Source: an uncultured Gammaproteobacteria bacterium (GTDB taxonomy: Bacteria; Patescibacteriota; Patescibacteriia; Veblenbacterales; UBA10138). Taken from it: a stretch of DNA of 64,000 nucleotides. Positions 6,416-32,786 of this stretch are shown piece after piece (positions within the stretch are counted from its first letter, which is position 1; the number at the start of each line of letters is the position of its first letter). The translations under genes and the position numbers were made by a program. The stretch covers positions 310,029-374,028 of the forward strand of contig CAYVOI010000001.1 of the NCBI GenBank assembly GCA_964453605.1, read 5' to 3'. The notes under the pieces were generated by a model, which ran no database searches, was not told the origin of the DNA, and saw only the letters and a program-made list of their open reading frames with translations.

Positions 6416-6648
6416 CTAGGCCGTTGTAATCGGGCTACAGGCCCTCATACATCGGCATCGTTCGGAAGAAATGAACCTCGGTTCATTTCGTTCCTCACTC
6501 GCCGTTGTAGCTTCCGCCTCCACTCTCGGCTTCGGCGGACAAGCAGCTGGCACGTACTTTGATAACGTTCCTTCACTATGGGGTTGAAGGTTTTCTTGAC
6601 CCGCTGCCTTGTGCCGATGTAGCTGGAGCTGGCCCCACCCCTTCTCTT
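6416..6648 (+). repeat. Degenerate tRNA-Thr 5'-end fragments and hairpins upstream of tRNA-Thr(GGU)
   Basis: gccgttgta / gccgatgta (tRNA-Thr 5' acceptor plus D start) recurs at about 6421, 6511 and 6621. The 6421 copy closes a minihelix (gccgttg..catcggc). A 9-bp hairpin gaaatgaac-ctcg-gttcatttc is also present. Confidence 0.4.
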
Positions 6649-6724
6649 GCCGTTGTAGCTCAGCTGGTAGAGCAACTCCATGGTAAGGAGTAGGTCGCCG
6701 GTTCAATTCCGGCCAACGGCTCCA
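6649..6724 (+). tRNA. tRNA-Thr (anticodon GGU)
   Basis: Cloverleaf: acceptor gccgttg/caacggc, D arm agctcagctggtagagc, anticodon loop atGGTaa, T arm gccggttcaattccggc, encoded CCA. Confidence 0.85.
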
Positions 6725-6792
6725 GAAGGGGTGGGGTAAATGGCGCAACTCCATGCTTGCCCAGTAGGGAATTGCAAAGCGATTCTGCTTCT

Positions 6793-6836
6793 GGGGTAAG
6801 GAGTAGGTCGCCGGTTCAATTCCGGCCATCGGCTCC
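6793..6836 (+). repeat. Partial duplicate of tRNA-Thr(GGU) 3' portion (anticodon-loop 3' side to CCA), 1 mismatch
   Basis: ggtaaggagtaggtcgccggttcaattccggccatcggctcca is near-identical to 6682..6724. No matching 5' acceptor strand upstream. Confidence 0.75.
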
Positions 6837-6928
6837 AGGCAGCGGGCCAAGCCGGCCACGGGCCGTAAAGCCCTCGCGGGCCCACGGCCCTTTACGAGGC
6901 TCCACGTTCCTTTTACGTTTTTGGTCTC

Positions 6929-7014
6929 GGGTGGGTATCGAAGTGGTCAAACGAGACTGACTGTAAATCAGTTGCCTTCGGGCTTCGCAGGTTCGAATCC
7001 TGCCCCACCCACCA
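6929..7014 (+). tRNA. tRNA-Tyr (anticodon GUA), class II long variable arm
   Basis: Acceptor gggtggg/cccaccc, anticodon loop ctGTAaa, long variable arm, T arm gcaggttcgaatcctgc, encoded CCA. Confidence 0.85.
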
Positions 7015-7087
7015 CGTAAAGCTCGCACAGCTCGCCATGTGGTATTAAAATAGTTGTAAGTGGTGCACCCCGTAGAGGTGCGTCAGC

Positions 7088-7123
7088 ACCTTCTTCGGGG
7101 TTCGAATCCTGCCCCACCCACCA
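7088..7123 (+). repeat. Partial duplicate of tRNA-Tyr 3' end (variable-arm remnant, T arm, acceptor, CCA)
   Basis: ggggttcgaatcctgccccacccacca is identical to the 3' 27 nt of the tRNA-Tyr at 6988..7014. Confidence 0.8.
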
Positions 7124-7191
7124 TTCGGCTCGCTTCGCTCGCTCATGGTAAACCAAGCGAGTCGAATGCCCCGAGCCGAGCCGAGGGGTTG
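7123..7191 (+). repeat. Hairpin plus conserved motif (gagtcgaatgcc ccgagccgagccgaggggttg) shared with the tRNA-Pro locus at 31928..32030
   Basis: 13-bp stem attcggctcgctt/aagcgagtcgaat with one G-U pair. The motif gagtcgaatgcc at 7159..7170 matches 31989..32000 exactly. Confidence 0.6.
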
Positions 7192-7206
7192 AAAAACAAG
7201 CGTGCT

Positions 7207-7407
7207 ATGGGTACACTATACTACGTTTATATGATGCGCTGCTCCGACGGTACGTTCTACGTCGGGATGACAGTCAACCTCGCGGCACGAGAAGCTCGTC
7301 ACATTCGAGGTGATGGCGCGAAGTTTACCAAGTCACATGGAGGAGAACGTATAGTATATCGAGAGCCACATGCTACGTATTTAACTGCACGGCGTAGAGA
7401 GATATAG
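7207..7407 (+). CDS. Stand-alone GIY-YIG nuclease domain protein (YhbQ/UPF0213-like)
   Basis: YYVYMMRCSDGTFYVGMTVNLAAREARH is a GIY-YIG motif; an ERIVYRE glutamate is present. About 66 aa from ATG 7207; the track ORF starts further upstream at an alternative codon. Confidence 0.7.
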   Translation: MGTLYYVYMMRCSDGTFYVGMTVNLAAREARHIRGDGAKFTKSHGGERIVYREPHATYLTARRREI

Positions 7408-7464
7408 ATAAAGAACTGGCGCCGCGAGAAGAAAGAACGTTTACTTTTAGGCCTTAAGCCGTAG

Positions 7465-7539
7465 GCCAGCGTAGCTCAGTGGTAGAGCAACTGTTTTGTA
7501 AACAGTAGGTCGTCGGTTCGACCCCGACCGCTGGCTCCA
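7465..7539 (+). tRNA. tRNA-Thr (anticodon UGU)
   Basis: Acceptor gccagcg/cgctggc, D arm gctcagtggtagagc, anticodon stem actgt/acagt with loop ttTGTaa, T arm gtcggttcgaccccgac, CCA. Flanked by gccttaag direct repeats. Confidence 0.85.
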
Positions 7540-7757: not shown

Positions 7758-7831
7758 GGGGGGTTCGTTCAGTGGTAGGACTTCGGTCTCCAAAACCGAT
7801 AACGTGGGTTCGATTCCTACACCCCCTGCCA
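7758..7831 (+). tRNA. tRNA-Trp (anticodon CCA)
   Basis: Acceptor ggggggt/accccct (G1-U72 wobble), anticodon stem tcggt/accga with loop ctCCAaa, T arm gtgggttcgattcctac, encoded CCA. Confidence 0.85.
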
Positions 7832-7868
7832 TGAAAAATTCAGTGGATTGTTCCACTGGATTTTTCAT
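7832..7868. terminator. Perfect 17-bp-stem hairpin immediately 3' of tRNA-Trp
   Basis: atgaaaaattcagtgga-ttgt-tccactggatttttcat. A related hairpin follows the downstream partial tRNA-Trp copy at 7983..8018. Confidence 0.6.
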
Positions 7869-7956
7869 TGTGTGAGTAGGAATCGAAGGGCGCGAGATAG
7901 GCGAGCGAGTTGGCTCGAGCTCGCCTGAGTGTAGCGCCCAGGCCCCGAGTCGGAGC

Positions 7957-7982
7957 GAGGGGGATTCCTACACCCCCTGCCA
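7957..7982 (+). repeat. Partial duplicate of tRNA-Trp 3' end (T-loop 3' side, acceptor, CCA) preceded by gagtcggagcgaggggg
   Basis: attcctacaccccctgcca is identical to 7813..7831. The preceding GGGGG can pair with the CCCCC of the acceptor strand to form a minihelix. Confidence 0.8.
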
Positions 7983-8091
7983 GGAAAAAACAGTTCCACC
8001 TTGGGACTGCTTTTTCCTGATGGCTAACGAGGGATCGAAGGTCATGCCTATAGGTATACACTCTTTCGTTTAGGAGTGCTAGACTAGAGCT

Positions 8092-8508
8092 ATGCGAGCA
8101 GAGGCACTAAAGTATGTAGCTATACTAGGGTTGCTGGCTTTTCTGGCCGTGGGAGTTTTTGCTGCTGCTCATATTATGGAAATGCCGATGAATGAGCACG
8201 GTGTAATGACCGGCTGTTGGTTCACGGGCATGGCTGGCCCCTGCCCCATGACCCTGAGTGAACATGTGGCGTCTTGGCACAGCCTTTTCACTAGCGTTCC
8301 GACTACATCCGACACTTTGTCGCTCGTTGTACTCGTTCTAGCGGTATTGCTGGTAGTCCCGCGTTGGTTCGAACGATACCGCAGGTGGGTGGCGGCACGA
8401 CTGGCACTTCTCCCCAGACTGTACCTGAAGTATCACCCCAACCTGACTCTCGCCACTTCGCTACGGGAAGCATTTTCTCAGGGCATTCTCAATCCTAAAG
8501 TGTACTAG
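8092..8508 (+). CDS. Small membrane protein (138 aa)
   Basis: Two or three TM segments. No recognisable motif. Confidence 0.45.
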   Translation: MRAEALKYVAILGLLAFLAVGVFAAAHIMEMPMNEHGVMTGCWFTGMAGPCPMTLSEHVASWHSLFTSVPTTSDTLSLVVLVLAVLLVVPRWFERYRRWVAARLALLPRLYLKYHPNLTLATSLREAFSQGILNPKVY

Positions 8509-31276: not shown

Positions 31277-31301
31277 CGGGGTATGGCCTAACCCCGACGC
31301 C
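31277..31301 (+). repeat. Internally deleted tRNA-Pro remnant (5' acceptor/D start cggggtatggcctaa joined to 3' acceptor ccccgacgcc)
   Basis: The first 15 nt are identical to tRNA-Pro 31670..31684. The tail matches the 3' acceptor strand. Lies upstream of the GIY-YIG gene. Confidence 0.6.
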
Positions 31302-31386
31302 TGGGCGCCGACGCTGCGGTCGGCGTTCCGCACCAGAAGCGTCGGAATCGGGGCTCCGACAGCGGAGCTCGTCGGAGTTGGTTTAT

Positions 31387-31647
31387 ATGATAGGATATTT
31401 GTATATTTTGAAGAGCTCGCAAACGGGACGTTATTACGTCGGTAGTACGAATGATTTACGTCGGCGACTGGTTCAACATCACCAGGGCCAGACTGCAACA
31501 ACTAAACGTCTCGGCAAGTTTGAGTTAGTTTTTTCTCAGGAGTTTAGTTCGCTAGCAGAAGCGAGGCTAGCCGAACGCCGAGTAAAGGAGTGGAAACGAC
31601 GAGATTTTATTGAAAAAATTATCCGTGATGGTAGAATTAAAACTTAA
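31387..31647 (+). CDS. Stand-alone GIY-YIG nuclease domain protein (YhbQ/UPF0213-like)
   Basis: GYLYILKSSQTGRYYVGSTNDLRRRLVQHHQG plus a downstream ...ERRVKEW glutamate. ATG at 31387; the track start at 31378 is TTG. Confidence 0.7.
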   Translation: MIGYLYILKSSQTGRYYVGSTNDLRRRLVQHHQGQTATTKRLGKFELVFSQEFSSLAEARLAERRVKEWKRRDFIEKIIRDGRIKT

Positions 31648-31669: not shown

Positions 31670-31745
31670 CGGGGTATGGCCTAATTGGTAAGGCGCACGC
31701 TTCGGGTGCGTGAGATTCTGGGTTCGAGTCCCAGTACCCCGACCA
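31670..31745 (+). tRNA. tRNA-Pro (anticodon CGG)
   Basis: Acceptor cggggta/taccccg, D arm gcctaattggtaaggc, anticodon stem cacgc/gcgtg with loop ttCGGgt, T arm ctgggttcgagtcccag, CCA. Confidence 0.8.
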
Positions 31746-31784
31746 GACAAATGCGCCGGTAGCGTTACTGGCGCATTTGTCTGC
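31746..31784 (+). terminator. 12-bp-stem hairpin immediately 3' of tRNA-Pro
   Basis: gacaaatgcgcc-ggtagcgttact-ggcgcatttgtc. Confidence 0.55.
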
Positions 31785-31795
31785 TGATTGGTAGT

Positions 31796-31812
31796 ATGGG
31801 ACTCGAAGGGTA
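31796..31812 (+). repeat. Inverted partial copy of the tRNA-Pro T-arm (gggactcgaa = reverse complement of ttcgagtccc)
   Basis: Same arrangement as the inverted T-arm copy gtaggaatcgaa (about 7873) after tRNA-Trp. Confidence 0.5.
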
Positions 31813-31908
31813 CTTTAGAAACGTAAACAGTTTTACGTTGCTAAAGACCCAGGCTTTGGCGGAGCGGTGAGTGTTGTGCTGTAAGCACCACGAGCCGCGG
31901 GGGAGAAG

Positions 31909-31928
31909 GAGTCCCAGTACCCCGACCA
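31909..31928 (+). repeat. Partial duplicate of tRNA-Pro 3' end (copy 1), preceded by gagccgcggggg
   Basis: gagtcccagtaccccgacca is identical to 31726..31745. Confidence 0.8.
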
Positions 31929-32030
31929 TTCGACTCGGCCTTCGACAAGCTCAGGCCTTGCCCATGGTCTACGACCTATAGATGAGCCGAGTCGAATGCC
32001 CTGAGCGAACGAAGTGAGTCGAGGGGCGCT
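31928..32030 (+). repeat. Long hairpin (attcgactcggc...gccgagtcgaat) plus motif gagtcgaatgccctgagc...gagtcgagggg
   Basis: 12-bp stem with a loop of about 46 nt. gagtcgaatgcc at 31989..32000 matches 7159..7170. Confidence 0.6.
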
Positions 32031-32047
32031 GCCCAATACCCCGACCA
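32031..32047 (+). repeat. Diverged partial duplicate of tRNA-Pro 3' end (copy 2)
   Basis: gcccaataccccgacca versus tcccagtaccccgacca. Confidence 0.6.
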
Positions 32048-32081: not shown

Positions 32082-32786
32082 ATGAATTCCGCTGATCCAA
32101 AAATGTCACAACCTAAGCACGTAGCGGTGATTGTTGATGGCAACCGCCGCTGGGCGAAAGCAAAAAATCTTCCGAGTTTGGAGGGGCACCGGGCTGGCTA
32201 TACAAGGGTAAAAGAGCTTGCCCGCTGGCTGTTTGCTCGTGGGGTTAAGTTTGCCAGCTTCTACCTGTTCTCGCGCGAGAACTGGAATCGTTCGGCTGAG
32301 GAGGTGGCCTACCTGTTCAATTTACTGGACGATGGGTTAGAGCGCGATGTTAAAGATTTTGTGCGCGATGGCATTAGATTGCGGTTTGCTGGTAGCCGCA
32401 CTGAGCTGAAACCCCGTACCCAGAAGCTCATGCGCCAGGCCGAAGCTGAGACCGCGGCTGGCACCAAGGGCACTATTGTGGCCTGCATCAACTACGGCGG
32501 GCAGCAGGAGATTGTAGAGGGCGTGCGCAAACTTGCGGCCGAGGGAACGAATTTAGCCGAGCTCACACCCGAAGGCCTCAAAGCCGGGCTCACGACGGCC
32601 CAGGTGCCGCCGGTTGACTTAATGATTCGCACCTCGGGTGAGCAACGTATTTCGAATTTTCTGTTGTGGGAGCTGGCGTATGCTGAGCTCTATTTTACCC
32701 CCGTGCTGTTTCCTGATTTTTCTGAGAAAAATTTAGACGAGGCTTTAGTTTGGTACCACAGCCGCGAGCGGCGCTTCGGCAGTTGA
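32082..32786 (+). CDS. uppS: Undecaprenyl-diphosphate synthase (cis-prenyltransferase)
   Basis: HVAVIVDGNRRWA, FSRENWNR, and C-terminal RFG. The true start may be ATG 32103. Confidence 0.85.
   Translation: MNSADPKMSQPKHVAVIVDGNRRWAKAKNLPSLEGHRAGYTRVKELARWLFARGVKFASFYLFSRENWNRSAEEVAYLFNLLDDGLERDVKDFVRDGIRLRFAGSRTELKPRTQKLMRQAEAETAAGTKGTIVACINYGGQQEIVEGVRKLAAEGTNLAELTPEGLKAGLTTAQVPPVDLMIRTSGEQRISNFLLWELAYAELYFTPVLFPDFSEKNLDEALVWYHSRERRFGS

Follow-up and report, generated by a model that had tools for sequence, protein, structure and literature searches.

What ties the same short sequence to the ends of two different transfer RNA (tRNA) genes? In a 64,000-nt stretch of contig CAYVOI010000001.1 (assembly GCA_964453605.1; this whole stretch is called the window here), the 12-mer GAGTCGAATGCC is found exactly at 7159–7170 and again at 31989–32000, each time close to a tRNA locus. 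The original prediction took the two sites for a small structured repeat associated with tRNA halves, and offered three origins for it, namely a non-autonomous mobile element, an attachment (att) scar of an integrating element or an RNA-processing signal. Both sites belong to a family of palindromic elements that adjoins the CCA end of tRNA and transfer-messenger RNA (tmRNA) genes, is linked to small GIY-YIG nuclease genes, contains covarying hairpins and also occurs as sharp-ended solo copies. Among the three origins a non-autonomous mobile element fits best, and the window sites are regarded, with fair rather than high confidence, as the cis element of a selfish UPF0213 (Slx1-like) GIY-YIG module that seeks tRNA ends.

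Two copies of one palindromic element in the window

The exact match of the 12-mer widens to 18 of 19 bases when 7158–7176 is compared with 31988–32006. Taken alone, a repeated 12-mer is within chance in 64 kb, as a search with up to two mismatches gives 3 matches against 3.5 expected, and its non-randomness therefore comes from its context. As predicted, the 12-mer forms at both sites the 3' arm of a hairpin, the 5' arm of which (TTCGRCTCG) follows directly after the CCA of a perfect copy of a tRNA 3' end (25/25 for Tyr, 20/20 for Pro). The arms of the second copy (31927–31939 and 31986–31998) are complementary at 13 of 13 positions, and the hairpin folds at the two sites have z-scores of -3.1 and -2.5. 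The 5' motif TTCG[AG]CTCG and the downstream motif GAG[CT]CG[AG]GGGG (GAGYCGRGGGG), the latter already proposed as a shared feature, are found in the window solely at these two loci.

A covariance model (R1) was built from an alignment of 40 metagenomic copies, independent of those in the window. When the whole window was searched with R1 by cmsearch without filters, the two copies were recovered at full length with no other significant match (Table 1). The 3' part of R1 also matches the minus strand at 7175–7120, so that the 5' half reads as the reverse complement of the 3' part, and the element is thus a long imperfect palindrome with an extra internal CGAGTCGAATG box. Rfam 15 at gathering thresholds identifies five tRNAs in the window and gives no match to the element.

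The first copy lies 18 nt upstream of a stand-alone GIY-YIG gene (type 1), the protein of which shares 44% identity over 79 aa with the element-linked GIY-YIG protein of locus L137. This gene contains an in-frame TAG (7405–7407), one base change from CAG and aligned to a Q of the L137 relative, beyond which the frame reads on through the conserved IKNWRREKKERLL and stops 1 nt short of tRNA-Thr(TGT) at 7465. Either a recent nonsense mutation or an error in sequencing could account for the TAG, and no sign of recoding was found at it; copy 1 heads a GIY-YIG gene apparently disabled by a single nonsense codon. Between the tRNA and the type 1 gene there is no strong promoter, but one 9/12 match at 7189–7217. 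The sequence GCTCATGGTAAACC of copy 1 was also considered as a decayed tRNA D arm and rejected, as it equals the conserved CTCGCTCATGG block of the family.

The second copy stands behind a terminator-like hairpin and a tRNA fragment, has no open reading frame (ORF) of its own, and is flanked by a 16-nt direct repeat with one mismatch (CCCAGTACCCCGACCA, 31913–31928; CCCAATACCCCGACCA, 32032–32047), with the uppS gene starting at 32082. A 67-aa ORF on the minus strand (31833–32036), containing PELVEGRVE, runs through this copy; such ORFs read through the element are probably repeat artefacts.

The element family and its GIY-YIG partners

Public metagenome contigs were scanned for the 19-mer CGAGTCGAATGCCCYGAGC, which occurs in at least 120 other contigs. 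All family counts given here are among the matches listed, which comprise 123 matches to the 19-mer in 114 distinct contexts. About 80 of the 114 have the full layout with both outer blocks. The 5' side consists of (CCA)TTCGACTCG, a GC-rich hairpin of variable sequence and CTCGCTCATGGC, the second conserved block being also given as CTCGCTCATGG; the middle consists of a second small hairpin (GGYY-TNC-RRCC) or a direct continuation, followed by CGAGTCGAATG; and the 3' side reads CCCTGAGC-(GAGCGAAGC)-GAGTCGAAGGGC, where GAGTCGAAGGGC is the element end. This imperfect palindrome measures about 70–100 nt, with terminal inverted repeats of about 28 nt (CCATTCGACTCG-CTTCG-CTCGCTCATGG versus CCCTGAGCGAG-CGAAG-CGAGTCGAAGGG), and carries three boxes (TTCGACTC once and GAGTCGAA twice) resembling the tRNA T loop or its complement. 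The metagenomic copies and the R1 matches together exclude a chance repeat.

A same-strand tRNA was found directly upstream by ARAGORN in 42 contexts, with the tRNA 3' end coinciding with the start of TTCGACTCG, and the host isotypes include Val, Ala, Leu, Gln, Arg, Gly, Pro, Ser, Trp, Tyr and Asn. The CCA at the junction is common to the element start and the host gene's own end. tmRNA genes also serve as hosts, the element being located at tmRNA 3' ends in L058 (tmRNA confirmed with Rfam), L059, L072, L073, L086, L101, L121, L149, L155 and L172. At several of these tmRNA loci and at the tRNA-Ala of L070 and L135, the preceding CCA is no encoded tail but consists of the last acceptor-strand bases and the discriminator base (tRNA nt 71–73 in L070 and L135). 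Tandem units, two or three in a row, are seen in other contigs (L059, L121, L149 and L095).

A GIY-YIG ORF starts 27–210 nt downstream in 40 of the 114 contexts, which bears out the suspected co-occurrence with GIY-YIG genes; the element invariably shares the strand of the tRNA and separates it from the ORF. Other copies are solo and remote from tRNA and GIY-YIG genes alike, as in a case between divergent genes, and 21 solo copies, when lined up, have exact ends (CCATTCGACTCG ... GAGTCGAAGGGC) within unrelated flanks. In the compact copies of L115 and L153, the GIY-YIG frame crosses the 3' half of the element (..RVECPE..VEG..), and the sole start codon is located upstream of the 19-mer.

The variable hairpins covary, with compensatory changes at 4 of the 5 pairs of hairpin 1 and also at pairs of hairpin 2. 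Paired cells amount to 94.3% versus 89.2% in shuffles, where 0 of 500 reach the observed value, and slid-partner controls give 25–48% paired. With the motif present in other contigs and the hairpins covarying, the original prediction withstands its own conditions for refutation. An 11-bp perfect helix, CATTCGACTCG/CGAGTCGAATG, is present in all 40 aligned copies, and helix P1, formed by TTCGACTCG with CGAGTCGAA, takes in the CA of CCA. The conserved blocks allow two mutually exclusive folds, as the arm TTCGACTCG can pair with either of the two GAGTCGAA boxes and CTCGCTCATGGC can pair with GCCCTGAGCGAG. A hammerhead-like core (CUGAGCGAG...CGAAG) was rejected on inspection, G8 and A9 of CUGANGA being missing.

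Rfam returned only tRNA, tmRNA and chance matches for twelve canonical metagenomic loci (E≤0.1), no plasmid sequence matched the consensus element by blastn, and a literature search, sequence strings included, found no description of the element, with the phage nuclease SegB as the sole related case. The family is widespread and apparently undescribed.

The element-linked GIY-YIG proteins belong to the UPF0213 (Slx1-like) family and consist of the catalytic domain alone (about 85–101 aa). In the two window proteins, this domain (PF01541) is detected with E=2.6e-16 and 5.9e-9, and the minimal UPF0213 domains 1zg2 and 1ywl are the solved structures closest to the other GIY-YIG protein of the window (31378–31647). 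No conserved sequence was found past the GIY-YIG stop in 11 loci with a delimitable ORF, U-like pieces being present only in L079 and L110. A UPF0213 gene of Peribacteria (L043, 1501–3246), with no tRNA within 1.5 kb, adjoins genes for a SPOUT methyltransferase and a member of the tRNA U5-methyltransferase family. The 2006 survey of the GIY-YIG superfamily describes the UPF0213 group as stand-alone, mostly vertically inherited repair-type enzymes, and records a fusion to tRNA G18 methyltransferase without mention of tRNA-gene adjacency (PMC1564403).

Broken tRNA genes and a second GIY-YIG system

A copy of the 3' part is located downstream of 4 of the 5 tRNA genes in the window, starting in the T loop (Tyr, Trp and Pro) or in the anticodon loop (Thr-GGT; 6795–6838, 43/44 identical). 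A tRNA-tail repeat downstream of the element is found at merely 2 of the 47 metagenomic loci that have an upstream tRNA or tmRNA and at least 300 nt of downstream sequence. Fragment copies ahead of elements are a peculiarity of the window genome, as the element elsewhere follows intact tRNA or tmRNA genes. The predicted tie of the repeat to tRNA ends thus stands, but not a general association with tRNA halves or minihelices.

Further units of the repeat had been proposed at the Trp locus and at 31891–31902. Similar sequence does precede the tRNA 3' fragments there, and the Trp and Pro modules reuse the element vocabulary (..TCGAAGGG, GAGCGAG, CCCCGAG..GAGGGG), but R1 detects neither. The Pro 3' module contains a terminator-like hairpin (31744–31783), an inverted T-loop copy TGGGACTCGAA (31797–31807), GAAGGG and two hairpins. 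The Trp module contains a terminator hairpin, an inverted T-loop copy GTAGGAATCGAA (7876–7887), GAAGGG, hairpins and CCCCGAGTCGGAGCGAGGGG (7943–7962), followed by the tRNA-Trp 3' fragment (7963–7982); its segment 7942–7962 is 81% identical to 7168–7188 of copy 1. A third AGGGATCGAAGG box (8030–8041; 92% identical to 7878–7889) lies after the second Trp terminator hairpin and before an ORF at 8092, with no tRNA fragment behind it.

The tRNA-Thr(GGT) gene is nested in an outer, interrupted tRNA-Thr, the pieces of which are located at 6613–6632, 6737–6755 and 6795–6838 (region 6595–6851). The outer acceptor (GCCGATG/CATCGGC) differs from the inner one (GCCGTTG/CAACGGC) by a compensatory pair. Both tRNA-Thr copies have 12–18-bp leader/trailer helices, and the same nested Thr design with unrelated sequence is seen in L004 (3280–3740). 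An archaeal-type bulge-helix-bulge intron was rejected for the D-loop inserts, as no such motif was found at the junctions on inspection.

The Pro locus of the window also carries a companion system, in which nt 1–15 of tRNA-Pro (31277–31291) are followed by a CCGAC/GTCGG double hairpin (31292–31377), TTGGT and a GIY-YIG gene of a different subtype (type 2), 32% identical to type 1. The same layout is found in L002. A scan of a genome collection with type 2 relatives gave 36 loci in bins of Saccharibacteria, other Patescibacteria, Omnitrophota and Planctomycetes. At every one of these loci, the fetched flanks contain a tRNA on the same strand, with many isotypes represented, and in 31 of the 36 it starts no more than 60 nt after the ORF. 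With the window included, 20 of 37 loci have an exact 5' prefix of the same tRNA upstream of the ORF, most often nt 1–15, directly followed by the CCGAC/GTCGG double hairpin, which places the gene inside a split older copy of the tRNA that it precedes. In about a dozen type 2 loci, the rest of the outer, split tRNA comes after the intact inner copy. The outer and inner tRNA-Ile of L029 differ by compensatory stem changes. Of the sister genomes L017 and L018, one retains an intact outer copy, and the other has lost most of it. No element copy was found by R1 in the type 2 loci, which indicates that the two GIY-YIG types use different cis elements. Genes for tRNAs in the lineage of the window have been repeatedly broken and regenerated beside GIY-YIG genes.

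Related loci with and without these genes were identified as well. The window comes from a genome of Patescibacteria type, and its closest UppS relatives carry the names Patescibacteria, Magasanikbacteria and Uhrbacteria. In L055 (74% UppS identity), tRNA-Pro(CGG) is separated from uppS by 19 nt, with no GIY-YIG gene and no element; in L004, a GIY-YIG gene that the window lacks at this position lies between a tetratricopeptide repeat (TPR) gene and tRNA-Thr. Presence and absence at the same locus are thus polymorphic among relatives (L055 and L004). The Pro module is kept in L052 (80% UppS identity), which has no intact tRNA-Pro at the locus and no copy 2. Within 1440–1615 of L052, the tRNA-Pro 3' fragment is 21/21 identical, far better conserved than its diverged surroundings. 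CCA is encoded in each of the window's five tRNA genes, but not in the orthologous tRNA-Pro(CGG) of L055 (2411–2481). For the Thr-Tyr-Thr-Trp locus, an exact look-up of the L33 protein for relatives returned no record.

Table 1. Positions of the element copies, GIY-YIG genes, tRNA genes and tRNA-derived segments in the window
Feature	Position	Strand	Evidence or remarks
tRNA-Thr(GGT)	6649–6724	+	ARAGORN, Rfam
tRNA-Tyr(GTA), intact, source of the fragment before copy 1	6929–7014	+	ARAGORN; Rfam tRNA 63 bits
Spacer, 84 nt, from tRNA-Tyr to its fragment	7015–7098	+	Folds with the fragment, small acceptor-like hairpin; 7015–7123 z=-2.1
tRNA-Tyr 3'-end copy, T loop to CCA, GGTTCGAATCCTGCCCCACCCACCA	7099–7123	+	25/25 versus 6990–7014; CCA common to copy 1
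Element copy 1, short form	7121–7189	+	R1 54.2 bits, E=2.5e-9, model positions 1–90
Copy 1, layout of 5' half		+	CCA-TTCGGCTCG (7121–7132), CTTCG, CTCGCTCATGG (7138–7148), short hairpin
Copy 1, layout of 3' half		+	CGAGTCGAATG (7158–7168), CCCC-GAGCCGAGCCGA-GGGG (7169–7188)
Stand-alone GIY-YIG gene, type 1, UPF0213-like	7207–7464	+	Pfam GIY-YIG E=5.9e-9; translation
tRNA-Thr(TGT)	7465–7539	+	ARAGORN, Rfam
tRNA-Trp(CCA)	7758–7831	+	ARAGORN, Rfam
Trp-locus module and fragment	7832–7982	+	Fold z=-6.3; no significant R1 match
Companion system, Pro locus	31277–31647	+
Type 2 GIY-YIG gene	31378–31647	+	Ends 22 nt before intact tRNA-Pro
tRNA-Pro(CGG), intact	31670–31745	+	ARAGORN; Rfam tRNA 66 bits
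3' module, tRNA-Pro to fragment 1	31746–31908	+	Fold z=-4.65; no R1 match
tRNA-Pro 3' fragment 1, GAGTCCCAGTACCCCGACCA	31909–31928	+	20/20 versus 31726–31745; CCA common to copy 2
Element copy 2, solo, long form	31926–32027	+	R1 78.3 bits, E=2.7e-14, model positions 1–90
Copy 2, layout of start		+	CCA-TTCGACTCG, hairpin GGCC..GGCC (contains inverted short unit CCTTCGACAAGCTCAGG)
Copy 2, layout of remainder		+	TTGCCCATGG, hairpin GGTC-TAC-GACC, CGAGTCGAATG, CCCT-GAGCGAACGAAGTGAGTCGA-GGGG
tRNA-Pro 3' fragment 2, GCTGCCCAATACCCCGACCA	32028–32047	+	32032–32047 versus 31913–31928, 15/16

Possible mode of spread and competing explanations

The closest precedent for a selfish GIY-YIG module at tRNA genes is SegB, a GIY-YIG homing endonuclease encoded inside phage tRNA clusters, with a recognition site holding a T-psi-C stem-loop motif (PMC2330249), cutting at RAWTSGAAC and driving recombination-dependent segmental amplification of tRNA segments (PMC13096335), and promoting its own inheritance (PMC2330249, PMC13096335). 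The genes described here resemble SegB of T4/T6 in being free-standing and in lying among or next to tRNA genes of many isotypes, and its cleavage motif RAWTSGAAC resembles the boxes GAGTCGAA, GGAATCGAA and GGACTCGAA of the element. SegB is, however, a phage protein of another GIY-YIG lineage, whereas stand-alone UPF0213 domains in cellular genomes are concerned here, and the passages of these papers considered here describe neither a conserved palindromic companion nor solo miniature copies for it.

By analogy with SegB, the nuclease would cut T-loop-like DNA in or beside tRNA genes, the boxes TTCGACTC and GAGTCGAA would mimic the T loop and its complement, and repair of the break from an element-bearing template would install the module after the CCA. 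The same repair would, in the window genome, also duplicate the tRNA 3' end from the T loop onward, and cutting followed by repair in the manner of SegB would yield duplications that start in the T loop, as seen here. As the boxes resemble the SegB motif, UPF0213 proteins may cleave a gene-less allele site-specifically. As the nuclease gene is located downstream on the tRNA strand, read-through from the tRNA promoter could express it, and gene-less copies would behave like miniature non-autonomous elements.

The element can be classed as a variant of two known kinds, homing-endonuclease-type selfish elements and miniature palindromic elements. Like miniature inverted-repeat elements and repetitive extragenic palindromic (REP) sequences, it is short and non-coding, has long imperfect terminal inverted repeats and is found as many sharp-ended copies in unrelated intergenic contexts; unlike them, it is associated with a GIY-YIG protein encoded outside the repeat rather than a DDE or HUH transposase, strongly prefers the base after the CCA of tRNA or tmRNA, and has no consistent target-site duplication. 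The obligate mobile element-guided activity (OMEGA) systems of IscB and TnpB may offer a parallel, as there, too, a non-coding segment of conserved structure adjoins the gene of a small nuclease where the mobile unit ends, with flanking sequence (here tRNA-derived) immediately 5' of the structured segment. By analogy, however, a GIY-YIG domain of ~90 aa is far too small, no HUH transposase is present, and nothing here points to the element as an RNA guide.

Several observations weigh against the selfish module. A downstream tRNA-tail repeat is missing at 45 of the 47 metagenomic loci, and target-site duplication is weak, with a mean best match of 4.78/8 versus 4.54 +/- 0.08 in controls; 8-nt flanking direct repeats are found at a few solo copies, and are clear (8/8) in just 2 distinct loci. 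SegB also carries a DNA-binding part, unlike the ~85–101-aa proteins here, which lack any such domain. The arms of the palindrome do not enclose the GIY-YIG gene, which is located beyond them, and the pair is therefore not a classical autonomous element with a miniature derivative. Some UPF0213 genes have no tRNA nearby (L043 and L051). The invariance of helices P1 (outer) and P3 (CCCT/AGGG) is uninformative, because the search pattern fixed both, and the hairpin mismatches carry no wobble bias specific to one strand (G.T 9 versus A.C 20 on the plus strand).

This last point bears on the third of the predicted origins as well. If the element were a structured RNA, it would serve as 3' trailer to the precursor of the tRNA or tmRNA and as 5' leader to the mRNA of the GIY-YIG gene, and its alternative helices would control tRNA 3'-end processing or nuclease translation. 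Its constant place and strand between tRNA and ORF, the CA of CCA within P1, the covarying hairpins, the two mutually exclusive folds of the conserved blocks, the apparent start of the ORF inside the element in L115 and L153, and the single 9/12 promoter match before the type 1 gene are all consistent with such a role, which is compatible with mobility but is considered rather unlikely. Apart from the plus strand having no excess of G.U over A.C, the solo copies are remote from any tRNA or GIY-YIG gene, copy 2 is separated from the intact tRNA by a terminator-like hairpin and a tRNA fragment and has no ORF, and the near-invariant CGAGTCGAATG box would lie in a loop, which points to recognition by protein or of DNA. 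The CCA that is at times tRNA nt 71–73 (L070, L135 and the tmRNA cases) further argues against a fixed processing role.

The predicted att origin, in which the tRNA repeats are scars of decayed integrase-borne islands targeting the T and anticodon loops, is very improbable, even though these loops are classic crossover sublocations of tyrosine integrases, the tRNA 3'-end direct repeats of the window start in them, and such islands also insert at tRNA and tmRNA 3' ends. It fails because neither the genes called up to 10 kb to either side of the Pro locus nor the ORF lists of the window include an integrase, the supposed islands are just 84–163 nt long, and the element is conserved across many unrelated contexts, beside many different tRNAs and tmRNAs, without the tail repeat and with its junction after the CCA in most members. 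The 5' tRNA fragments lying upstream are not produced by integrase integration either. Hardly any weight is given to functional minihelices, or to pieces of split or multi-intron tRNAs acting as decoys, primers or trans-splicing parts, since an intact tRNA of the same anticodon accompanies nearly all fragment sets and the outer copies decay, as between L017 and L018. The conserved Pro fragment in the diverged module of L052, where the locus has no intact tRNA-Pro, and the compensatory stem pairs kept by outer copies (Thr-GGT acceptor of the window, tRNA-Ile of L029) would agree with a function. Rfam, however, gives the disrupted outer copies 34 and 31 bits versus 67–72 for intact tRNAs and finds no tRNA-like match in L052, and most family members elsewhere have no fragments.

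In addition to the selfish module at the window sites, a wider reading is put forward tentatively, as a possibility that is on the whole doubtful, in which UPF0213 genes and their hairpin elements form an unrecognised cross-phylum class of selfish elements homing to tRNA and tmRNA genes. One branch would park after the CCA end with its palindrome. The other, in bins of Patescibacteria, Omnitrophota and Planctomycetes, would enter the D loop, mostly after nt 15, with the CCGAC/GTCGG double hairpin in front, and would bring or regenerate an intact copy of the split tRNA. In the boldest form of this proposal, the element, as folded DNA or RNA, would guide the ~90-aa nuclease to T- or D-loop-like targets.

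UPF0213 proteins (bacterial Slx1-like) have solved structures and no established function. If the selfish module is true, many of them would be recast from repair-type enzymes to nucleases of selfish elements, and a cellular parallel to the SegB-driven duplication of phage tRNA segments would be added. It would also explain a recurrent odd sequence beside tRNA genes in many metagenomic bacteria, spurious ORFs included, and R1 can be used to annotate the element. For the reduced genomes of Patescibacteria, the finding suggests that single-copy tRNA genes continue to be broken, repaired and replaced.

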